DNA of 64,000 bases from an uncultured Eubacteriales bacterium (lineage in GTDB: Bacteria; Acidobacteriota; Aminicenantia; Aminicenantales; Aminicenantaceae): contig CAZIDF010000001.1 of assembly GCA_964538085.1 (NCBI GenBank), forward strand, positions 96,826 through 160,825, read 5' to 3'. Numbering within the stretch: position 1 is the first letter of the stretch; every line of letters begins with the position of its first letter. This document shows positions 14,619 to 27,941 of this stretch, piece by piece. The notes beneath the pieces are model-generated. The model worked only from the letters and a program-made list of their open reading frames with translations, was not told the origin of the DNA and ran no database searches. Position numbers and translations under genes: made by a program.

Positions 14619-17561
14619 CTATTTTTCCCTCATCGGATCCTCTCGAATGGCGACAAAACCAGAATAGCTTTCCCCTTCCAGGATCATTCTCAGTGTGTAA
14701 ATCCCGGCTTCGACTTCTGGGCCCAGGAGTGGCCGCAGAAAAAAGCCTTGTCCCGTGGCATAACTCCTGAACTCTTCCATCACAGTCTGCAAGATTTTGT
14801 TGTATCCGTCGGTTGTCTTTGCCTTTTGGAATTCTTCGTGCAACTCATCCAAGCGTTCCTTTTGCTCCCCCTCCACTTGTTTTTTTAATTCGACAAAGAT
14901 ATTTTCCAGCCTTTTCACAAAGCTATTTTTCTGTTGATCGGTCGGCTCGAATCGCATATCCCAACGGTATCGGCCGATCCCCTCTGAGTCTTCCAACAAT
15001 ATGGTTCTTGTCATCTTTTGGCTCAGATCGCTGATTTCAACCATAGCTTTTTCCTGGGGTTTTGATCTGAGATAATAGTTTATCGAAGCCGTGTTTTGGA
15101 TAGGCATCGGAGAATTGGAGGGTTCGACTTGAGACATGGATAGAGGGTTTCGCCCCACGAATAATTTGTGACCTCGGGTCGCGCCTCTGCTAATACCCTG
15201 CCATTTAGTTGCCACGGGATTGTCGAAAAAGTGGACTTTCTTTCCAGCCACATCTTCAGTGAACTGTTGCAGAGGAGTGATGTCATCCAGAATATAGGTG
15301 CCCCTGCCATGAGTACCCGCGATAAGATCGCCAGCTAGAGGATGTATTAGCAGATCGTGTACAGCGACCGTTGGCATTCCGCTCATAAGCTCAGTCCAAG
15401 ACTTGCCGCCATCGACCGAAACGAACACACCAAACTCGGTACCCACAAACAGAAGGTTTTCATTCTTCAGATCTTCCCTGATGACATACACACTATGCCC
15501 ATCCGGAAGGTTGTGAGTGATATTCTCCCATGTTTGTCCGAAATCCTTGGTTTTGAACACATAGGGGCGGAAATCATCGCTGCGGTGGCCATCAAAAGTC
15601 ACAAAACACACACCTTTGTCGAAGTGGGAAGCTTCCACCCGACTTACCCAAATGGTTTCCGGAACACCAGAGATGTTGGGCCTGACATTGGTCCAAGTCA
15701 CTCCATCATCCCGGGTCAATTGCACATTTCCATCATCGGTTCCTAACCAGATCAATCCGGATTCCAGCGGAGACTCAGAAATCGTGATGATAGTGCAATG
15801 GACTTCTGCTCCTGTGACATCGCGGGTCAATCCCCCGCTGTCTCTGAGGATTTTTTTGGGGTCGTTCGTGCTCAAGTCAGGGCTGATGATCCGCCAGTGA
15901 TCTCCCCGATCGACACTCTTGAACAGAAAGTTGGCCCCATAATAGAGGGTAAGCGGATTATGGTGGGATAGAACGAATGGCGTGTTCCAGTTCATACGCA
16001 CAACGGATCGGCTGGAATCTGTATGCTTAGGAACGACATCTTCCCAATTCAGCGTGTTGCTCCGCGTGGGTGAGATCCCCTCGGATTCCTGACGGAACAA
16101 TGCGTGGTTTCGCCGCAACCTGCCTCCCTGGCTTTCGGAATAGACCGTGGTCCAATCGGTAGGATCCACCGCCGTGTAAAATCCATCTCCGCTGTGGAAT
16201 TTAAACCAGTGATCGTTAAAAATGCCGTTGCAGTCCCGGCTGTTGCTCGGCCCGCCCCATATCCCATTGTCCTGAAGACCGACATATACATAATAGGGAT
16301 CCCTCATGTCTGCAGAAACGACATAGATTTGGCTGATCGCATAATTGTCGAAGAAGTTGAAATGTTCGCCATGATCGTAGGTGATGGAAACTCCTTTATC
16401 GTTTCCCACATAATAACGGTCCTTGTTCTGGGGGTCGAGCCACATCACATGAAAATCACCGGCAATGCCGGGCATCCCTGGCTGGAAAGTTTTTCCCCCA
16501 TCTTCAGAGATTTGCGCCTGGCCTCCCATGGCATAAACCCGTTGATCGTCATGGGGATTGATATAAATTTGGCTATAATAAAATGGCCGGTCGTTGTATC
16601 GGTTTACAAAGGCCCAGGTCTCGCCTCTATCCTCCGAGCGATAAATACCCGACCCGAGCTTGCTCATGTCTTCGTACTCTTCGCTACCCCGCCTCGGCTG
16701 AAAACCATGCTCGAAGATGACCATCACGATCTTGGGATCGGCGCGGTATATAGCGATACCGATGCGGCCGATATCTCCTTCGGGCAAACCCTCGGTCAAC
16801 TTTTTCCATGTCTGTCCCCCATCACTGGATTTGAATAATCCTCCATTCGGTCCGCCGCTGTCGAAGCGGTGAGGTTGCCTCAACCTCTGCCAAAATGCTG
16901 TGTATAAAATATCCGGATTTATCGGGTCCATCTCGATATCGGTGCACCCTGTTTTGCCGTCATCGGGAAGTCCATTTCCCAATTTCAGCCATGTCTGTCC
17001 CCCATCTGTCGTTTTATACAAACCTCTCTGTCCTGTGTACCCCCACAGGTGTCCTTGAGCTGCTACATAAAGGATATCCGGATCTTCTGGATGTGCGATA
17101 ATCCGCGCGATATGATGAGAATTTTCCAGCCCCATATGGGTAAAGGTTTTCCCGCTATCCGTGGATTTATATATCCCATCTCCCCAACCCACGCTGTTCC
17201 GCACATTGGCCTCTCCCGTGCCTACCCAAATTATGTCCGGATTCTTGGGAAACATGGCCACAGCGCCGATCGACGCCGAGCCATAATCATCAAAAATAGG
17301 CTCCCATGTCGTTCCGGCATTGATGGATTTCCAAACACCTCCAGAGGCAGATGCCACGAGCACATGCCCAAAGTCGGTGTCTAATGCTTGGATATCGGTG
17401 ACTCGGCCACTCATATTGGCCGGTCCGATATTCCGCCATTGGAGGTTTCTGAAAAGGGCCCTTTCCGCTGGCTGTGCATTCAGCACACCCCAATTTAAAA
17501 AAAATAAAAAAGCCATTAACATCCAGCAGAATAGAACCTTTTTTCTCGTTCGGTTTATCAT
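14619..17561 (-). CDS. secreted BNR/Asp-box repeat protein (sortilin/VPS10- or GH74-like beta-propeller)
   Basis: 980 aa with signal peptide. At least 8 Asp-box motifs (S/TxDxGxTW/F): STDSGKTF, TTDGGQTW, SSDGGQTW, SEDRGETW, SEDGGKTF, TRDDGVTW, TKDFGQTW, SVDGGKSW. Confidence 0.75.
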   Translation of the reverse strand: MINRTRKKVLFCWMLMAFLFFLNWGVLNAQPAERALFRNLQWRNIGPANMSGRVTDIQALDTDFGHVLVASASGGVWKSINAGTTWEPIFDDYGSASIGAVAMFPKNPDIIWVGTGEANVRNSVGWGDGIYKSTDSGKTFTHMGLENSHHIARIIAHPEDPDILYVAAQGHLWGYTGQRGLYKTTDGGQTWLKLGNGLPDDGKTGCTDIEMDPINPDILYTAFWQRLRQPHRFDSGGPNGGLFKSSDGGQTWKKLTEGLPEGDIGRIGIAIYRADPKIVMVIFEHGFQPRRGSEEYEDMSKLGSGIYRSEDRGETWAFVNRYNDRPFYYSQIYINPHDDQRVYAMGGQAQISEDGGKTFQPGMPGIAGDFHVMWLDPQNKDRYYVGNDKGVSITYDHGEHFNFFDNYAISQIYVVSADMRDPYYVYVGLQDNGIWGGPSNSRDCNGIFNDHWFKFHSGDGFYTAVDPTDWTTVYSESQGGRLRRNHALFRQESEGISPTRSNTLNWEDVVPKHTDSSRSVVRMNWNTPFVLSHHNPLTLYYGANFLFKSVDRGDHWRIISPDLSTNDPKKILRDSGGLTRDVTGAEVHCTIITISESPLESGLIWLGTDDGNVQLTRDDGVTWTNVRPNISGVPETIWVSRVEASHFDKGVCFVTFDGHRSDDFRPYVFKTKDFGQTWENITHNLPDGHSVYVIREDLKNENLLFVGTEFGVFVSVDGGKSWTELMSGMPTVAVHDLLIHPLAGDLIAGTHGRGTYILDDITPLQQFTEDVAGKKVHFFDNPVATKWQGISRGATRGHKLFVGRNPLSMSQVEPSNSPMPIQNTASINYYLRSKPQEKAMVEISDLSQKMTRTILLEDSEGIGRYRWDMRFEPTDQQKNSFVKRLENIFVELKKQVEGEQKERLDELHEEFQKAKTTDGYNKILQTVMEEFRSYATGQGFFLRPLLGPEVEAGIYTLRMILEGESYSGFVAIREDPMREK

Positions 17562-20672: not shown

Positions 20673-20970
20673 TTAAGTTTAAATTAATTTATAATATTTA
20701 AATTAAGCTTGAAATTTATATATATGATAAATAATTTCAGTTAAATGTCAAGGTATTTTAAATGCAGATCGACAAAAAATTGTTCGAATATAAACGGGAA
20801 AAATATCCATCCAGAAAATTTTTAATCTCATTTCGTTTCACACTTTCTATACATATAAAAAAAACAGTATTCTCTGGAGGTCGAAAAACCTATATAATAT
20901 ATAATCTTTTTTATTGCCGATTTATCGAATACCCCCTTAAATTCGTATGGATCGGGTGCAGGGAGGATGC

Positions 20971-22041
20971 ATGAGGATAAAATCATTAACGGCCACACCT
21001 GTGGAGTTACACCTCAAAGAACCATTTGCTATTGCAAACGAGACTGTGGATCGGGCAATCAATGTCTTCATAAAAGTCGAGACAGATCTGGGTCTTGTCG
21101 GATGGGGTTGTGCCACACCGGATTCTGTCACTTCCGAAACAGAGGAAACCGTTCTTTTAGCGTGCAATACGATTCTTCAAGACCTGATGATCGGAAAAGA
21201 TCCCATTCGTATCAACCAAATTAACGAGGACATCGAGCAAAATCTCAAAAAAAATCCCTCGGCAAAAGCAGGAGTCAACATGGCCCTGTATGATGTTCTC
21301 GGCAAGGTTGCAAACATGCCCCTGTATAGCCTTCTTGGTGGATATAGAGATAAAATTGAAACCTCGGTGACAATCGGACTGAATCCCACCGATATCATGG
21401 TGGAAAAAGCAAAGGAGTTTATCGCTCAGGGATTCACATGTCTCAAGATTAAATGCGGCATGGATCCGGATCAAGATATCGAGGCTGTCCTTTCGATAAG
21501 AAGCACGGTTGGATCTGCAATAAAAATACGCTTGGATGCCAATGAGGGATATACCGTTGAACAAGCCTTGCGAGTGGCTCAAACTTTGGAGGATCTCGGA
21601 GCGAACATCGAGATACTGGAGCAACCGACAAAGGCGAAATTTCTGTATGCTTTGAAAGAAGTCACGGTGCACTGCCCTGTCCCCATAATGGCGGATGAAA
21701 CTGCTCTGACCTTGAGGGACAGCTTAAAGGTCATAAAAAGAGAAGTTGCGGACATGATCAACATAAAGCTTATGAAAATCGGAGGAATCTCGAACGCCAT
21801 CAGGGCCAACCTCTTTGCTGACCTGGCAGAAATTCCCGTAATGGTGGGGTGCATGAATGAATCTATGGGCGCGATGGCGGCAGGAGTCCACTTTGCGTGT
21901 GCCTTTAAAAATGTTGTTTATGCAGATTTAGATTCTGCCTTGGACTTCACCGATGATGTCGTCAAAGGGGGGGCAAGCTATAAGGACGGCTTTGTCATCC
22001 CTTCGGACAAACCAGGCCTCGGCATAGAGGTTGATCTGTAG
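20971..22041 (+). CDS. L-Ala-D/L-Glu (dipeptide) epimerase, enolase superfamily
   Basis: MR/MLE subgroup motifs KIKCG and RLDANEGY, metal-ligand region EQP...MADE. Start chosen at ATG 20971, with GGAGGA just upstream. Confidence 0.8.
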   Translation: MRIKSLTATPVELHLKEPFAIANETVDRAINVFIKVETDLGLVGWGCATPDSVTSETEETVLLACNTILQDLMIGKDPIRINQINEDIEQNLKKNPSAKAGVNMALYDVLGKVANMPLYSLLGGYRDKIETSVTIGLNPTDIMVEKAKEFIAQGFTCLKIKCGMDPDQDIEAVLSIRSTVGSAIKIRLDANEGYTVEQALRVAQTLEDLGANIEILEQPTKAKFLYALKEVTVHCPVPIMADETALTLRDSLKVIKREVADMINIKLMKIGGISNAIRANLFADLAEIPVMVGCMNESMGAMAAGVHFACAFKNVVYADLDSALDFTDDVVKGGASYKDGFVIPSDKPGLGIEVDL

Positions 22042-23408
22042 TGAGAAATTTGATCGAAAATATTTTGAGGGATGTCCCCACCTATACCCGCTTTCTTACC
22101 GTCAGGGAGATAGATGAGCTGGTCGCTCTCATAAAGATGATGCCTGGTGTCGAGGAGAATATAATCGGCCGCACGGTCAACGATGAACCCCTTCTCATGT
22201 TAAGCATGGGGACAGGTAAAAAAACGGCGATGATCATTGGCGTTCCGCACAGCGATGAACCACTCGGAAGCCTAGTCGTTACCTTTTTTGCTAGATGGCT
22301 TGCGAAACACCCTGAGACCGATGGATTGGGCTGGCGTTGGCTGTTTATCCCGATTCTCGAGCGTAGGGGAATGCGCCTCAATGAAGGATGGTTCAATATG
22401 CCAGAGTCATTGGCGGCTATGGCAAAATCAACGTTCAGAGAACCCACAGAGCTCCAGTATGAATGGACTTTCCCCATCAGCTATGATGATTATCGATGGA
22501 CAAAATCAAGGCCTGAGACCCTCGCCGTAAAGGAAGTTCTCGAAAAGGAAAAACCCGATCTACTCTGCGGTCTGCACCACAGCGGATTCACGGATGCTTA
22601 TTATTACTTCAGCAAGGATTTCCCTGAAGTGTATCCAAAATTGAAGAAATTCGCTGCCAGTATTCAAATACCTCTTTCAGATTCAGCCCCCGATGTGCCA
22701 TTCGGAAATTTGTTGTCTCCTGGATTCTATCAAATGTATGGTCTCAAAGATTATATCGGCTACTATACAAAAAATGATCCGATGATATTGCCAGCAATTA
22801 AACGTGGAGCTTGCAGCGACGAATGGTACCAGAATGAAATCGGTGGCTTCAGTTTTAACTGTGAAGTGCCCATGTATCTAACTCCAAAATTAAAAGATAA
22901 AGCCCCTTCCCGAACATCCTTCAGAAAGATGATCGAGGAGAGATATAAACGAAAACAAGCAAGAGTCCTTTATTCCCTAAAGTTGTGGGATAAACTCAAA
23001 CACAACGAGGAAATGGCAGATCCACATCTTATGACTGCAGCAAAAAAACACTTGGCACACGCCCAAGCATCCCTGGAACATGAAAAACGAATCCTTTCGA
23101 AGATGGAAAACAAACCCATAACAAAAGCGGAGAAGTTCCAAAACAGCGTACTGGAAGACCTATTCGATTTATTTTTCCTAGGACAGATCTGGCGAGTTGC
23201 TGAAAGTATTTGCATCAAGGGAGGCGCAACCGATGTCTGCCACCTGATGGAGGCGGCGGATCTAGAGATCAAATCATTGGCAAAGAGTATTCAAGAAAGA
23301 GGAGCCTTCTACCACATCCCTATCCGGAGTTCTGTAAAAATGCAATTAGGGAGCTTGCTCATCATCGCAGAAGAGTTGAAAAAAAAGTACCATAAAGTAT
23401 CATATTGA
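22041..23408 (+). CDS. M14-family metallopeptidase, MpaA-like (gamma-D-Glu-diamino acid amidase-like)
   Basis: GVPHSDEPLGS carries HxxE. GTG start overlaps the epimerase stop (TAGTG), giving translational coupling. E. coli ycjG is adjacent to mpaA. Confidence 0.55.
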   Translation: MRNLIENILRDVPTYTRFLTVREIDELVALIKMMPGVEENIIGRTVNDEPLLMLSMGTGKKTAMIIGVPHSDEPLGSLVVTFFARWLAKHPETDGLGWRWLFIPILERRGMRLNEGWFNMPESLAAMAKSTFREPTELQYEWTFPISYDDYRWTKSRPETLAVKEVLEKEKPDLLCGLHHSGFTDAYYYFSKDFPEVYPKLKKFAASIQIPLSDSAPDVPFGNLLSPGFYQMYGLKDYIGYYTKNDPMILPAIKRGACSDEWYQNEIGGFSFNCEVPMYLTPKLKDKAPSRTSFRKMIEERYKRKQARVLYSLKLWDKLKHNEEMADPHLMTAAKKHLAHAQASLEHEKRILSKMENKPITKAEKFQNSVLEDLFDLFFLGQIWRVAESICIKGGATDVCHLMEAADLEIKSLAKSIQERGAFYHIPIRSSVKMQLGSLLIIAEELKKKYHKVSY

Positions 23409-23660
23409 ATTCTGCCTCATCCAGTGTTATAATAGCAACATTACAATTAAACTGACAGGAGAACACCGTTGAATTCCCAACATATTCCTCATCCGGCCTT
23501 GAACTTAGGTATTATCCGCAAAATAGCGCCAAGCGACTTTCACTGAATCGTTCAACTGGAAAAAAATTGTTTCGGTACCCTTCTTGCCTATTCTCAGCGA
23601 CAATTAAAATATCTCTTGACCCATGCTAGAAGTTGCGCCCTTGTAGAAACCTCGAACCAA

Positions 23661-23966
23661 ATGATTAGAGGTTTCATCATTCTTCTTTATCGAAAAAGAT
23701 CTACCGTCGCTGCCATTGAAACGCTGGATGTCGATCCCCGCTTCCATGGTCAAGGCATCGGCCTGCGCTTGCTAAAAGCTAGCGAAGAGGAAGTGGTTTC
23801 GTCTGGTATGAAAAGCATAAGATTAGAAGTCTCGACAAGCAATCTTCCCGCATTGCGACTGTATGAAAAAGCAGGATACCGGACAACGGCATTTTTGCCT
23901 AATTATTATTTAAATGAACATAATGGAAGCCGGAATGCTTACCGAATGGTTAAAAAGTTGGCTTAA
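23661..23966 (+). CDS. GNAT family N-acetyltransferase (short, RimI-like core)
   Basis: Acetyl-CoA-binding motif HGQGIGLRLL. Start placed at the first ATG (MIRGF); the track ORF begins at TTG. Confidence 0.55.
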   Translation: MIRGFIILLYRKRSTVAAIETLDVDPRFHGQGIGLRLLKASEEEVVSSGMKSIRLEVSTSNLPALRLYEKAGYRTTAFLPNYYLNEHNGSRNAYRMVKKLA

Positions 23967-25408
23967 ACAGAAGGCTTTTTGATCGGAACCCAATCTCCCT
24001 CTTCGAGCCTGCAATATCCGATCGTATAGCGCTCGAGTATGGACATCAATCTTTTTCGAAAATGTCTCGGGATCATATGGATATCGGCAATATCGCTATC
24101 GAGATGAATTCTCTCGATATGATCCACCTGTCTTCCCTGTGGAGATTCACGTTTTCCTTTGAGAAGATAAAAGGAATGATCTTTTTCATCCTGATCGAGT
24201 CTCAAGAGAGAAAAATCGCTCCTTTTTCGAAGAGACAGGATGTCCTTTTTCGAAAAGTTCATCTTTTCGGGATTCCCGTTGTTTGCCATGAGGAAGAGAA
24301 GCACTCCGATACATTTGGAACAGATCCCACAGGGCACGATTTCACGGTCAACGAAGTGACAGGAATGACAGGATCGCTGTTTATCAGCCAAATGCAGATA
24401 GCGTGAGATAAGGATTCGTTCCACGATAAGCCCTGTGATGTTGCGAACGGTAGACCATTGAGACAGTCCCGATATTCTCCGGGAATACCAGTCATTCATC
24501 CTGATATCAAAATCTTGGTGTTGATCATATATCCCGAAATAATGGGAAATGCCATGATAAAGGGGAGGTGACCGGAGATCATCGAATTCACTTCCGATAA
24601 GTAGGTTGCCGATTCCTTCATGGACAAAAACAGGGAGCAAAGCAAAAACATAAAAAGGAAAAATACACAGTCTGATCGGATAAGTGTCAGCCCTTATTTT
24701 CCTAAAATCGGACCGGATAAAATGAAGATGATCCAGCATGAAATTATAAAACCGGTCCACATTTGTCCATATTCGCCGCGTGTTCGGATCGGCTTTTTTG
24801 TGATACCGATAGGCAGGCAAAGCGGGTCTCCAGTGCCCCCCGCTTTCATTCACATACAGAGGATACACATCCGCCCCGGCCTCGCTCAGCAACGCATAAG
24901 TCAACAAGCTCTCTTTTCCTCCGCTAGAAAGAACACCACACCTGTTTTCCTTCATCCCCTTCGCGATAAAACGATCAGGATGGACATGGGCGGGCTCTAT
25001 CTCCGCTCGAAGATCCGAGTGCAAGGGCAGGACATCGTTCTCGGAGAGAAAAAACTCAGGCAAGATATAATTTGCTCTGCGCCGGAGAATCTTATTCACT
25101 AAGATATCCCGGCTGAAAACAACATTCAGGTCATCAAGAAGACGAATGTCGGAATCAGACAAAGAAAAATCGAGCACAAACCTTTTGGAAAACAGGCCAT
25201 AGTTCAGAAGCGGCATGCAAAAAGCCATCCTCAGGAGAGGCAGATGACTCTCCTGTATTTCGTTTTCATACCTGACTTCCAAAACAAATTTATGAGTGTC
25301 GCCATCGATGGAATTCAATGTGACTTCCGATTTTGCGGTGGGCCCGCTTATGACTGGTTCAGAGAGTGTTATCGAGGAAAAGCTTATAAAATGTGATTGG
25401 TTATTCAT
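23963..25408 (-). CDS. PP-loop superfamily ATP pyrophosphatase with Cys cluster (adenine nucleotide alpha-hydrolase fold)
   Basis: SSGGKESLL PP-loop. C-terminal CHSCHF...CGICSKC cysteine cluster. The ATG overlaps the DUF1611 stop (ATGAATAA), so the start was moved to 25408. Confidence 0.55.
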   Translation of the reverse strand: MNNQSHFISFSSITLSEPVISGPTAKSEVTLNSIDGDTHKFVLEVRYENEIQESHLPLLRMAFCMPLLNYGLFSKRFVLDFSLSDSDIRLLDDLNVVFSRDILVNKILRRRANYILPEFFLSENDVLPLHSDLRAEIEPAHVHPDRFIAKGMKENRCGVLSSGGKESLLTYALLSEAGADVYPLYVNESGGHWRPALPAYRYHKKADPNTRRIWTNVDRFYNFMLDHLHFIRSDFRKIRADTYPIRLCIFPFYVFALLPVFVHEGIGNLLIGSEFDDLRSPPLYHGISHYFGIYDQHQDFDIRMNDWYSRRISGLSQWSTVRNITGLIVERILISRYLHLADKQRSCHSCHFVDREIVPCGICSKCIGVLLFLMANNGNPEKMNFSKKDILSLRKRSDFSLLRLDQDEKDHSFYLLKGKRESPQGRQVDHIERIHLDSDIADIHMIPRHFRKRLMSILERYTIGYCRLEEGDWVPIKKPSV

Positions 25409-26450
25409 CACGGAAATTAACGAGCTTCTCAACGATCTCATCCACTCCATCTGACAGTGGCTCCACGACCGGGACACGGAACGTGTTCCCCAGTTTCTCC
25501 TTCGCCATTTTAATTTCGGAAGCATCCATCTTTTCTCGGTTAAGCCCTATGGCGAGCAGCGGTTTGCCTGTCAGAAGTTCTGCGATTCGAATTATTCTTG
25601 ACGGATCCGGCATAGGATACTCGGGAAAACCATCAAGATGCGGCCTTTTGGGGGCATCGACAAGGATAAACCCATGGACCTTCCCGGCAGCCAATATTTC
25701 ATATCCTCCTGGGAAAAAGGGATGAACAAGGCTCCCCTGTCCCTCGATGATGATAAAATCCGGAGAGAGGTCTTTCCATGAGTCGAGGATCGCTCCCTCA
25801 ATCCCTCCTGCGATAAAATCATTGATCATGGCATCCAGAACTATCCCGTGAGGCCAACCCTGAATCCAGCCGGTCTGACCGGTAAAAATCATATCGGACA
25901 TATGTCCGTGCTTTTTCAGCCCTTCGTTTAAAAGCACGGCCAAAGTTCTTTTTCCGACAGCCGAGTCGACTCCCAGGAGAGCGATCCGTATCGATTTTAC
26001 TTTTGAGATTTCTCCGGTATAAAAGCGTTTATGATCCCGAAATATTTTTCTGACATCGACTATTTCACATTTATTTTCCTTGGCTAACTTTTCAAAAACA
26101 GGATTATCTGAGAGGAACTCATGAAGTCCTGAAACGACATCCAGGCCGTTTGAAAGAGCCCATGAGACCGCTTTGTCGTATCCATCGGGAAGAATCCCTC
26201 CTTCCGACACAGCCCCGATGATGAAAGTATCCGCTCGAGTTGCAGCCAGCGATCTCTCCAGGTCATTGAAAAGGGGTATCCCTCTTTTCTTCCCATCCAA
26301 GATCTCGCCTGCATCTCCTTCTGGCAATGTAGAGTCTACGACAGAAGCGATATGATATTTTTTGCTGTACCGGACCAAACCATGCGCGGTCTTTCCATCG
26401 GCACAGTTATAGAGCCGATCAGCATAGACGATCGCGCTTTTTTTGGCCAT
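25401..26450 (-). CDS. DUF1611 family protein (DgcN-like, putative D-Glu N-acetyltransferase family)
   Basis: 349 aa with the overall architecture of DUF1611/PF07755. Lies 12 nt downstream of the PLP-enzyme gene. Confidence 0.55.
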   Translation of the reverse strand: MAKKSAIVYADRLYNCADGKTAHGLVRYSKKYHIASVVDSTLPEGDAGEILDGKKRGIPLFNDLERSLAATRADTFIIGAVSEGGILPDGYDKAVSWALSNGLDVVSGLHEFLSDNPVFEKLAKENKCEIVDVRKIFRDHKRFYTGEISKVKSIRIALLGVDSAVGKRTLAVLLNEGLKKHGHMSDMIFTGQTGWIQGWPHGIVLDAMINDFIAGGIEGAILDSWKDLSPDFIIIEGQGSLVHPFFPGGYEILAAGKVHGFILVDAPKRPHLDGFPEYPMPDPSRIIRIAELLTGKPLLAIGLNREKMDASEIKMAKEKLGNTFRVPVVEPLSDGVDEIVEKLVNFRDE

Positions 26451-26462
26451 CCTAAATTTTTT

Positions 26463-27602
26463 TCAGCTCTTTCTGCCTGTCAATACCGCTATGTATCTAT
26501 CTTGGGCGAAGGGCTCTTTCTGGTGTTGTTCTAGCAGGGAAATGAGACCTGCAGTCGATGCTGGCAACACATTCAACCCTTCTTTTTCGCGAATGATTCT
26601 GGAAAAGGTCAGCATGTTTTTATCGCTGCCATAAGAGGCCCAGCCTCCCGAGTTTCGAATGGCATACAATGCATAATCTCCATCGATCGCACGCCAGTTG
26701 ATCAATGGCTCATTCACGGCTGTCTCCCGGATCTTTTCCGGCATCAAATCCTGGCAATTCGGAAGATTTTTGATGTAAGCCTGGATTATCGGATTTTTCC
26801 CGAAAGATGATCCTGCAATGATCTTGGGAATCCGGGAAGTTTTTCCTCTTCTGTAGAGGCTGACAAAACCCTTGTAAACTCCAGCCAGGGTGGTCCCATT
26901 GGATACAGGCAAGGCCACAACTGCGGGGGCATCGCGCAGTTCATCATAAATCTCTCGAGCAATTTCTCCATAGGCATTCAACTGAAGAACCGTGTTTGCA
27001 CCACCGGCATTGGCATCGTAGTAGTCACTCTTTTCCGCCATTTGTTGAGAAACTATAACCGCATTCTCGTAATCGCCGGGAATTCGCAATACCTCAGCTC
27101 CATACCCCGATATCTCCTTTATCCGTGTAGTGTGGTATTTTTCCGGTATGTAAATGACACATCTCAAACCCGCAAGACAGGCTGCCAGAGCAATAGCAGC
27201 GCCATAATTGCCACAAGTCGCAACCGTAATCGTATCATACCCCCGACGGAGAGCATCCATAACCTGTGCGAAGGCAATTCTGTCTTTTTGCGTACCCGTG
27301 GCTGTGCTTCCTTCGAACTTGAGATAGATCTGCCGGATTCCAAATTCGCGCTCGATATTTCGGGCCCGTGTTAGGTTGGTATCCCCTATCTCTGAATCTA
27401 TGATGTCTTCGAACGCTTCCAATCGTTCTTCCCTAGTGTGAGAATGATCGGCAGCGATTTTTCTCTGCATTTCCAGTTCAGGAGCGATCGAGGGATACTG
27501 GGCTGTAGCCCCATCCAAAAGAGAGAGTATGCTATCCAGACTATGCTCTTCAGTTTGCTCTGAATTTTTGTCTTTGGTTTGATCTAACTTATCGTTCGAC
27601 AT
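26463..27602 (-). CDS. PLP-dependent enzyme, tryptophan-synthase-beta superfamily (threonine synthase / SbnA-like)
   Basis: TGTQKDR lysine motif (compare TGSFKDR). Glycine-rich PLP phosphate-binding loop GSSFGKNP. Confidence 0.65.
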   Translation of the reverse strand: MSNDKLDQTKDKNSEQTEEHSLDSILSLLDGATAQYPSIAPELEMQRKIAADHSHTREERLEAFEDIIDSEIGDTNLTRARNIEREFGIRQIYLKFEGSTATGTQKDRIAFAQVMDALRRGYDTITVATCGNYGAAIALAACLAGLRCVIYIPEKYHTTRIKEISGYGAEVLRIPGDYENAVIVSQQMAEKSDYYDANAGGANTVLQLNAYGEIAREIYDELRDAPAVVALPVSNGTTLAGVYKGFVSLYRRGKTSRIPKIIAGSSFGKNPIIQAYIKNLPNCQDLMPEKIRETAVNEPLINWRAIDGDYALYAIRNSGGWASYGSDKNMLTFSRIIREKEGLNVLPASTAGLISLLEQHQKEPFAQDRYIAVLTGRKS

Positions 27603-27722: not shown

Positions 27723-27941
27723 TCAAGATTTTGTTTTTCGTTGGGTCACTAAGAAGCCGAGAACAAATCCGACAGCCAAGAGCCCAACCATAAAAATGAT
27801 CCGCGACATCATGATTTTCCAGAAGAACAATTGAAGGGTAACTATTTCCGAATTCTGGACAACGATCACGACAGCCAACACAACGAGCACTAAAATAAGA
27901 ACTGTTTTGGATTTTACAGTCATTTTCTCTTTCATAACCAC
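27723..27941 (-). CDS. small membrane protein (LapA/DUF1049-like)
   Basis: 72 aa with two hydrophobic helices. Overlaps the corA stop region. Confidence 0.45.
   Translation of the reverse strand: MVMKEKMTVKSKTVLILVLVVLAVVIVVQNSEIVTLQLFFWKIMMSRIIFMVGLLAVGFVLGFLVTQRKTKS

Follow-up and report, generated by a model that had tools for sequence, protein, structure and literature searches.

A DUF1611 protein and a predicted QueC-fold enzyme form the core of a conserved and very probably undescribed metabolic gene cluster

We analysed a 64,000-nucleotide stretch of contig CAZIDF010000001.1 (GenBank assembly GCA_964538085.1; hereafter, the window), in which three minus-strand genes encode a pyridoxal phosphate (PLP) enzyme of the PALP family (gene 1), a DUF1611 protein (gene 2) and an orphan PP-loop ATP pyrophosphatase that we refer to as X (gene 3). 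An earlier note on this DNA had described the three genes as tightly packed, and reading the DNA confirmed both the packing and the coordinates. The stop codon of gene 1 and the start codon of gene 2 are 12 nt apart (TGA, 12 nt, ATG), and the start of X overlaps the stop of the DUF1611 gene by 8 nt (ATGAATAA; the junction reads GATGAATAA). Judging from this arrangement, which leaves no room for a promoter in between, the three genes form an operon. About 330 non-coding bases separate the 5' end of gene 1 from CorA, the adjacent gene upstream, whose end is at 27932. A GNAT acetyltransferase gene converges on X and, as had also been noticed, ends within its stop region with a 4-nt overlap at 23966. 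Beyond it lie an enolase-superfamily gene (MR_MLE) and a gene for an M14-type zinc carboxypeptidase, which overlap end to start at 22041. Thus, the operon appears genuine, but the unit is larger than the three genes of the earlier note, since the epimerase-like gene and the M14 or, in other lineages, creatininase gene fall outside the interval it had delimited. For X, a longer open reading frame (ORF) of 520 aa with a start at 25525 (23963-25525) is also present. Because the 481-aa product is identical to a database protein (P0001) and begins in line with 26 homologues in the alignment, we ruled out the 520-aa frame as the X gene.

To place the operon in a wider context, we scanned one genome per species for its pattern and obtained at least 592 confirmed X loci. 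The 80 of these that were listed are all archaeal and belong to Thermoplasmatota, Bathyarchaeia, Aciduliprofundum, Thermococci and Thermoprotei. We furthermore called ORFs in 84 independent loci, taken from metagenomes and species-representative genomes, and used the window proteins as queries against them. Of the 78 loci with enough sequence, 77 have the DUF1611 gene as the immediate same-strand neighbour upstream of X, PALP stands upstream of this pair in 53 of 66, and a convergent GNAT gene directly follows X in 54 of 79. Clustering of the neighbouring families showed that only six recur, i.e., X (83 loci), DUF1611 (82), PALP (63), GNAT (56), MR_MLE (25) and the 455-aa M14 protein (24), with any other family present in at most 15 loci. 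The triad, whose co-occurrence the earlier note had suggested examining, is strongly co-conserved, and the objection that its genes do not travel together falls away. DUF1611 and X make up the fixed core, to which PALP is often added, and one entire clade lacks PALP. Only one locus has no DUF1611 (L041; CP070836.1; 3280-9302). Its X is N-terminally short, PALP is missing as well, and the locus is probably decayed or rearranged; it retains GNAT, M14 and MR_MLE, and lysyl-phosphatidylglycerol-synthase-like and DJ-1/PfpI genes lie upstream of X. Two bacterial contigs (P0174 and P0182) show no DUF1611 in the sequence available and are uninformative. The suspicion that the operon matches no recognised pathway held up as well: literature searches on DUF1611, COG3367, PF07755 and PRK06381 gave nothing relevant, with no paper mentioning the triad, X, PF07755, COG3367 or PRK06381, and a recent survey of the QueC family covers PF06508 members only and does not mention DUF1611. 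Taken together, the window very probably carries a real metabolic gene cluster that is conserved and has not been described before.

Natural fusions point to the same core. P0135 is a DUF1611-X fusion of 855 aa, X is fused to a creatininase (PF02633) in P0138, P0142, P0182 and P0186, and P0140 is an X-methyltransferase fusion with DUF1611 upstream. On metagenome contigs, the fusions occur in the order PALP, DUF1611-X, creatininase and MR_MLE, or DUF1611 followed by X-creatininase and MR_MLE. We regard DUF1611 and X as the core pair because of their adjacency, the P0135 fusion, the position of DUF1611 upstream of X-methyltransferase and the presence of the pair alone in the Aciduliprofundum-like clade. 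Overall, four layouts could be distinguished: the one of the window with a long PALP, DUF1611, X, GNAT and M14-MR_MLE (V1); a 325-aa PALP with DUF1611, X and GNAT (V2); DUF1611-X alone, in the Aciduliprofundum-like clade (V3); and the creatininase version (V4). MR_MLE and M14 occur together within 8 kb at 18 of the 27 loci with a long PALP, at none of the 14 with a short PALP and at one of the 12 lacking it. The orientation of the MR_MLE-M14 genes relative to the triad varies: in Thermoplasmatota they are on the opposite strand, whereas Bathyarchaeia have them on the same strand, sometimes together with a second PALP. The linkage has therefore survived rearrangement across phyla.

Several lineages carry variations of their own. 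A high-GC bacterial contig (L092:4280-12599; with Mfd and PilZ) encodes PALP, DUF1611, X, creatininase, MR_MLE and a 2-oxoglutarate (2OG)-Fe(II) oxygenase. There, a gene for a secreted protein with Asp/Thr/Ser repeats has been inserted behind PALP. The X call seems to be frameshifted towards its C-terminus, and X and creatininase may be one fused gene. In the Aciduliprofundum-like Thermoplasmata (L067-L084, e.g. L078:6907-10233), a gene for an EamA-family transporter converges on X and is followed by housekeeping genes (KsgA-like, RNA polymerase subunit, ribosomal protein). One lineage of Bathyarchaeia (L048:10012-10995 and 14856-15926; L042, L045, L053, L060, L064 and L065) has the cluster flanked by two deoxyhypusine-synthase (PF01916) paralogues, with arginyl-tRNA synthetase and an HDAC-type deacetylase nearby and F420-related genes upstream. 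These flanks could reflect a polyamine or lysine link or plain synteny; as the paralogues are confined to this one lineage, a link to polyamine or hypusine metabolism is unsupported.

Table 1 Genes and motifs of the cluster in the window
Feature	Position	Strand	Details
Gene 1, PALP (PLP enzyme)	26463-27602	minus	ORF, 379 aa
Gene 2, DUF1611 protein	25401-26450	minus	ORF, 349 aa
Gene 3 (X), predicted QueC-fold PP-loop ATP pyrophosphatase, orphan	23963-25408	minus	481 aa, ATG at 25408
PP-loop SGGKES of X, residues 162-167	24908-24925	minus	sequence reading
QueC-type zinc motif of X, C347-x12-C360-x2-C363-x2-C366	24311-24370	minus	sequence reading
RimI-like GNAT acetyltransferase, convergent on X	23499-23966	plus	PF00583; intact ORF 23616-23966
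M14-type zinc carboxypeptidase, divergent, C-terminal helical domain	22041-23408	plus	455 aa; extended system
Enolase-superfamily dipeptide-epimerase-like enzyme (MR_MLE)	20947-22041	plus	364 aa; PF02746 + PF13378; extended system

X is the least familiar of these proteins. It had no match in Pfam (E ≤ 0.01, PF06508 included), NCBIfam or PADLOC, and searches of the Protein Data Bank (PDB) by phmmer and with a 27-sequence profile reached a best E of ~0.04 over the PP-loop only. The family is nevertheless large: at least 1864 homologues could be detected among the scored candidates, and 1.8 billion representatives contain 172 clusters of X at the 50% identity level. We predicted the structure of X with AlphaFold2 on the 27-sequence alignment and obtained a confident model (pLDDT 92.9, pTM 0.91), in which an N-terminal domain (residues ~1-150) is followed by a Rossmann core (~150-345), a zinc ribbon and a C-terminal domain (~380-481). 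A Foldseek search of this model against the PDB returned QatC first, then Cap9 and QueC (all three at probability 1.00), followed by the tRNA thiolases NcsA, TtuA and MnmA and then YcfA and LarE. The match to QatC extends over 465 aligned columns (9y02_B, E 2.4e-4), and 9nto_B was hit at E 2.9e-4. The TM-scores to QatC are only 0.39-0.44, so that the relationship is distant.

The motifs of X could be compared with those of its characterised relatives. QueC has an SGGxDS PP-loop, a C(x)8CxxCxxC zinc motif and the catalytic motifs YxQxHxxE, VPxRN and YPDC (PMC13329287), and QatC consists of a core (145-377) with N- and C-terminal extensions and the zinc ligands C334, C354, C357 and C360 (PMC13279940). 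In the model of X, a core of residues ~150-370 is likewise flanked by both extensions in a QatC-like layout. The N-terminal one, put at 190 aa in the earlier note, is indeed large, but spans ~150 aa before the Rossmann core when counted from that note's own start codon. The PP-loop SSGGKESLL was found as described, at residues 161-169, and an SGGx[DE]S PP-loop is present in 26 of the 27 aligned family members. The cysteine cluster (CHSC...CGICSKC, residues 347-366) is present too, though not quite as the CxxC...CxxCxxC pattern first read: C350 is not conserved, whereas C347, C360 and C363 never change and at least 90% of members have C366. The motif is hence a QueC-type C(x)12CxxCxxC motif, found in 26 of 27 sequences. 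The protein called a PP-loop ATPase is thus a PP-loop enzyme and, judging from the predicted structure, specifically one of QueC fold and QatC-like architecture.

The canonical motifs YxQxHxxE, VPxRN and YPDC occur in none of the 27 family members, which instead have the invariant acid-rich motifs NESGGHW, GxEFDD and YDQ. Because the catalytic motifs of QueC are absent and X has acid-rich motifs of its own, X almost certainly uses ATP to adenylate something other than 7-carboxy-7-deazaguanine, and the conserved acidic residues would fit an amine-bearing substrate. A canonical QueC identity is ruled out by these motifs together with the failure to match PF06508 and the lack of queD or queE neighbours in the 84 loci. 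The model thus places X in a new branch of the QueC fold, outside PF06508. An archaeal contig furthermore holds a distant lone paralogue of X (P0236, 460 aa, E 4e-8; L088:6537-9383), divergent from an ornithine/diaminopimelate/arginine decarboxylase gene; according to this protein, the orphan family has further uncharacterised branches.

QatC as the top structural match, with its core-plus-two-extensions layout, raises the question of whether X acts in protein modification or defence, conjugating a carboxylate to the N-terminus of DUF1611 or PALP in the manner of QatC-QatB or Cap9-CD-NTase. X likewise has an obligate and sometimes fused partner. We consider this very unlikely. None of the four proteins matched a PADLOC model, and no QatA, QatB, QatD, Cap10, CD-NTase or effector gene was found among the clustered neighbours of the 84 loci, so that QatC or Cap9 identity is ruled out for X. 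The substrate motifs of QueC are lacking, the N-termini of DUF1611 and PALP are variable and devoid of a glycine motif, and the genes keep a stable chromosomal position among metabolic and housekeeping genes in several phyla.

Sulfur transfer, one of the functions at which the earlier note had guessed, fares no better. In a sulfur-insertion scheme, a carbonyl adenylated by X would react with cysteine, and C-S cleavage by the PLP enzyme would then leave a thio-group, as when YcfA/YcfC make 6-thioguanine. YcfA, TtuA, NcsA, MnmA and LarE are all among the structural matches of X, and the PALP superfamily includes cysteine synthases and desulfhydrases. The four-cysteine pattern is, however, the zinc motif of QueC and QatC and not a three-cysteine Fe-S site, which leaves a role as Fe-S thiolase unsupported. 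Moreover, the QueC-type matches outrank the thiolases, PALP is missing from a whole clade that retains DUF1611-X, and no sulfur-carrier or cysteine-desulfurase gene was found among the clustered neighbours. We therefore regard sulfur chemistry as highly improbable; a modified D-amino acid, which the earlier note had also proposed, agrees best with the evidence.

The constant partner of X carries both DUF1611 domains (PF17396 and PF07755), as the earlier assignment to the DgcN family implied, with a Rossmann-like N-terminal domain and a P-loop C-terminal domain (GVDSAVGKRT, EGQG). Its P-loop is intact as GTDSA[IV]GKRT (GxDSAxGKRT) in all 79 X-linked copies, and 2g0t, 2obn and 7xrj are its relatives in the PDB. 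DgcN, the only characterised DUF1611 protein, N-acetylates D-Glu with acetyl-CoA. Gene 2 scores 158 bits on the DgcN equivalog NF041892 against a cut-off of 480, which rules it out as a DgcN orthologue. Judging from its sequence, it is thus DgcN-like, yet no orthologue of DgcN.

Gene 1 encodes a fold-type II PLP enzyme (PF00291, 1.1e-48) with its PLP lysine in the TGTQKDR motif, as reported before. The accompanying description as SbnA- or threonine-synthase-like needed correction. With 40.8 bits against a cut-off of 349.95, the SbnA model TIGR03945 rules out an SbnA identity, and the canonical ThrC model TIGR00260 yields 93.3 bits against 167.1. Gene 1 does pass NF004996/PRK06381 ('threonine synthase') with 432 bits against 266. 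This model stems from an automatically generated cluster with no characterised member known to us. By these scores, the PLP enzyme would be neither a canonical ThrC nor SbnA, but a member of the unstudied PRK06381 clade. Its homologues are 379-396 aa long and 72-93% identical, which argues that its N-terminal extension, conserved from about residue 43, is real. Identity is 59% to the PALP of the bacterial contig, N-terminal helix included, and 44% between this 'long' PRK06381 subtype and the short subtype of 325 aa.

The nearest PDB relatives of gene 1 are threonine synthases, at only 86-99 bits. In an alignment with ThrC of T. thermophilus (1uim), Lys61, Asn154 and Asn188 are kept and the substrate loop S-T-G-N-T is changed to T-C-G-N-Y. 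Thr88, Ser155 and Arg160, which reportedly bind the substrate phosphate, align with Tyr, Ala and Gln, respectively, which is suggestive only, given ~25% identity and gaps near position 160. These observations bear on the plainest of explanations, namely a genuine threonine synthase standing by chance beside two unrelated hypothetical genes. The pass on NF004996 and the JGI labels of the homologues speak for it; the unreached TIGR00260 cut-off and the three replaced residues speak against it, and it is excluded by a synteny that holds in Thermoplasmatota, Bathyarchaeia, Thermococci, Thermoprotei and one bacterium. We give this explanation almost no credence.

JGI and NCBIfam NF004996 routinely label homologues of this PLP clade 'threonine synthase' despite the failure on TIGR00260 and a non-threonine context. 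The label is probably a propagated mis-annotation, and we flag it here as a systematic one, since pipelines assign it to PRK06381 proteins at large.

For the enolase-superfamily enzyme, the closest solved structure is YkfB of B. subtilis, an L-Ala-D/L-Glu epimerase (255 bits), to which its LKIKCG, DANEGY, EQP, ADE, NIKLMK and ADLDS segments align. It keeps the KxK motif, the metal ligands, the second catalytic lysine and DxD, and each of the 26 cluster-linked copies has both KxK and DxD. In dipeptide epimerases, DxD binds the ammonium group of the dipeptide, with KxK and the lysine being catalytic. The position of YkfB Arg24, a residue that binds the D-Glu side chain, is occupied by Glu in 26 of 26 copies (motif IANETV; e.g. 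L008:11423-12532), including the archaeal creatininase-version copy L007, and by the same residue in the copy of the bacterial contig. Because an invariant Glu replaces Arg24, the substrate is probably different from L-Ala-D/L-Glu and cationic, i.e., a diamino or basic one. The enzyme reaches 245 of 500 bits on NF041118 (L-Ala-D/L-Glu epimerase), 102 of 343 on NF011708 and 144 of 400 on the DgcA model. The charge reversal and the NF041118 score together rule out an L-Ala-D/L-Glu epimerase specifically.

The 455-aa protein had no Pfam match. With a 14-sequence profile, its HSDE and LHH segments could be aligned to the residues that bind zinc in carboxypeptidase M (E 0.019). PF00246 is on record for many of its orthologues (63-72% identity), and a model of medium confidence (pLDDT 70.6) matched carboxypeptidases A, B and T at E ~2e-7. 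We therefore assign it to the M14 carboxypeptidases, as a divergent member that carries an additional helical domain.

An M14 enzyme beside a YkfB-like epimerase and a DUF1611 protein could suggest ordinary recycling of murein peptides and D-Glu, with M14 acting as MpaA, the enolase-superfamily enzyme as YcjG/YkfB, DUF1611 as DgcN, and X and PALP contributing side activities. YkfB and DgcN are indeed the closest characterised relatives, and the hosts live on necromass. In E. coli, mpaA and ycjG are neighbouring genes, which counts in the same direction. Murein recycling is nonetheless improbable. The arginine that binds the D-Glu carboxylate is replaced by an invariant Glu, the scores on the L-Ala-D/L-Glu epimerase, DgcA and DgcN equivalogs are all far below their cut-offs, and the strict conservation of X would be left unexplained.

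The GNAT gene of the window is peculiar in that its full-length frame (155 codons) is broken by an in-frame TGA at codon 16 (23544-23546). From a TTG at 23499, it aligns end to end with homologues of 157 aa across this TGA, and two independent metagenome contigs of the same organism show the same short product. A pseudogene, read-through and a truncated protein that starts at 23616 are all conceivable.

With this information at hand, we propose a tentative pathway, offered with less than even confidence, in which a basic amino acid would be ligated or acylated at the expense of ATP, epimerised and released by hydrolysis, i.e., a stereoinversion or salvage paid for by ATP. The operon would then be part of a conserved amino-acid tailoring pathway of five to six enzymes. 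X may adenylate a carboxylate or carbonyl with ATP and hand it to an amine, by analogy with every characterised QueC-fold enzyme. Together with DUF1611, with which it probably forms a complex, X would make an amide, that is, an N-acyl- or dipeptide-like derivative of the amino acid. An amide-forming pair is suggested because DgcN N-acetylates D-Glu and because QueC, Cap9 and QatC couple an adenylated carboxylate to an amine. The enolase-superfamily enzyme could then invert the alpha-carbon of the derivative, and the M14 carboxypeptidase, or the creatininase-family amidohydrolase in other lineages, would break the amide and free the inverted amino acid. The PLP enzyme might serve to provide the amino acid or to withdraw it. 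Irreversibility of the inversion would come from ATP and possibly from acyl-CoA, with D to L as the favoured direction. Such a scheme would parallel the DgcN-DgcA and N-succinylamino-acid racemase pathways, except that it would employ a new ligase. We infer every chemical step, substrate and direction of this scheme from the gene order, co-conservation, fusions, folds and motifs described above. The host lineages degrade aged detrital protein in sediments, which is enriched in D-amino acids and in which the D/L ratio rises with depth, and a role in D-to-L salvage fits this feeding habit.

Several observations weigh against this pathway. PALP has no mechanistic place in it and is absent beside the pair in ~20% of loci. 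Only ~30% of loci have MR_MLE and a hydrolase within 8 kb, so that many genomes may run the pair without these enzymes or encode them elsewhere. The argument from charge reversal rests on one aligned position. DUF1611, X and GNAT together look redundant for a simple cycle of acylation, epimerisation and deacylation, and the X-creatininase fusion joins a bond-maker to a bond-breaker, which is sensible only with a step in between. Furthermore, no linked transporter for D-amino acids or peptides was found among the clustered neighbours of the 84 loci.

The lack of a linked uptake transporter favours at the same time the strongest rival, biosynthesis rather than salvage, which we consider doubtful. 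The cluster would then make an N-acylated or dipeptide-like metabolite with a D- or PLP-made non-proteinogenic residue, for instance an osmolyte or the precursor of a cofactor. It would resemble the synthesis of N-acetylglutaminylglutamine amide (NAGGN), with a GNAT or ligase, a PP-loop amidotransferase and a peptidase, or that of D-cycloserine, with PLP-dependent beta-replacement, a racemase and ATP-dependent amide closure. PLP enzymes of the ThrC clade are usually biosynthetic, and the loci sit among housekeeping genes. The exporter-type EamA gene of the Aciduliprofundum-like clade could serve a product, and the X-methyltransferase fusion and the 2OG oxygenase of the bacterial cluster look like tailoring; all three are, however, lineage-specific. 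A conserved hydrolase, even fused to X, would be odd in a purely biosynthetic route, and no product is known from the uncultured host lineages.

A more specific version of the ligation, epimerisation and hydrolysis pathway seems rather unlikely to us. DUF1611 and X would constitute a new two-component amide or peptide ligase of QueC fold which, with the charge-reversed epimerase and the M14 or creatininase hydrolase, runs a 'carrier-dipeptide' cycle inverting basic or diamino D-amino acids. If true, this would be a new route of D-amino-acid salvage and could be part of the reason why Thermoprofundales and Bathyarchaeia can subsist on old sedimentary protein that has racemised. The pair could also be the metabolic stock from which anti-phage enzymes of the QatC type were recruited.

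Irrespective of the chemistry, X is a large family without a Pfam, NCBIfam or PADLOC model and a putative new metabolic branch of the QueC fold, which is increasingly recognised as a general machine for conjugating carboxylates to amines. Its pairing and fusion with DUF1611 give the latter a testable second context beyond DgcN. The hosts, i.e., Thermoprofundales-like Thermoplasmatota, Bathyarchaeia, peptide-fermenting Thermococci and Aciduliprofundum, are among the most abundant uncultured archaea of sediments, and the cluster bears on how sediment archaea handle D-amino acids and degraded peptides.

Comparison with known systems shows where the cluster stands. The DgcN-DgcA system likewise ties a DUF1611 protein genomically to an enolase-superfamily racemase or epimerase, and likewise implies a deacylating or hydrolytic step and an irreversible stereoinversion via a derivatised amino acid. 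Both window proteins are nevertheless far below the DgcN and DgcA cut-offs, and the window epimerase retains the DxD of the dipeptide type, with Glu at the position that Arg occupies in acid-specific enzymes. In addition, the window system contains an obligatory ATP enzyme of predicted QueC fold, a PLP enzyme and a dedicated peptidase. With QueC, Cap9 and QatC, X shares the fold, the PP-loop, the C(x)nCxxCxxC zinc site and a fixed protein partner, and with QatC also the N- and C-terminal extensions. In contrast to them, X escapes the PF06508 and PADLOC models and lacks the three catalytic motifs in all 27 sequences, and its loci contain amino-acid enzymes rather than queD/queE, qatABD or CBASS genes.

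The pair of MpaA and YcjG/YkfB resembles the window in that an M14-type gene adjoins a dipeptide-epimerase-type gene, here even with an overlap. It differs in the charge of the specificity residue, in the strong divergence and extra helical domain of the window M14 protein, and in that our hosts are archaea without murein. The N-succinylamino-acid racemase (NSAR) route, which reportedly achieves an irreversible D-to-L conversion with a GNAT, NSAR and a desuccinylase, also combines a GNAT, an enolase-superfamily racemase and a metallohydrolase in one cluster. The window epimerase is, however, of the dipeptide type and not of the NSAR/o-succinylbenzoate synthase type, the GNAT gene is convergent and interrupted by a TGA in the window, and the DUF1611-X-PALP operon has no counterpart in that route. 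As for the ThrC/cysteate synthase clade, gene 1 has threonine synthases as its best PDB relatives and keeps the PLP lysine and the equivalents of Asn154 and Asn188, but fails TIGR00260, has a different substrate loop and a conserved N-terminal extension, and does not conserve the phosphate-binding Arg160 in the gapped, low-identity alignment. Taken together, what is new is the X family, its obligate partnership with DUF1611 and the make-up of the pathway, whereas the folds and reaction types are familiar.

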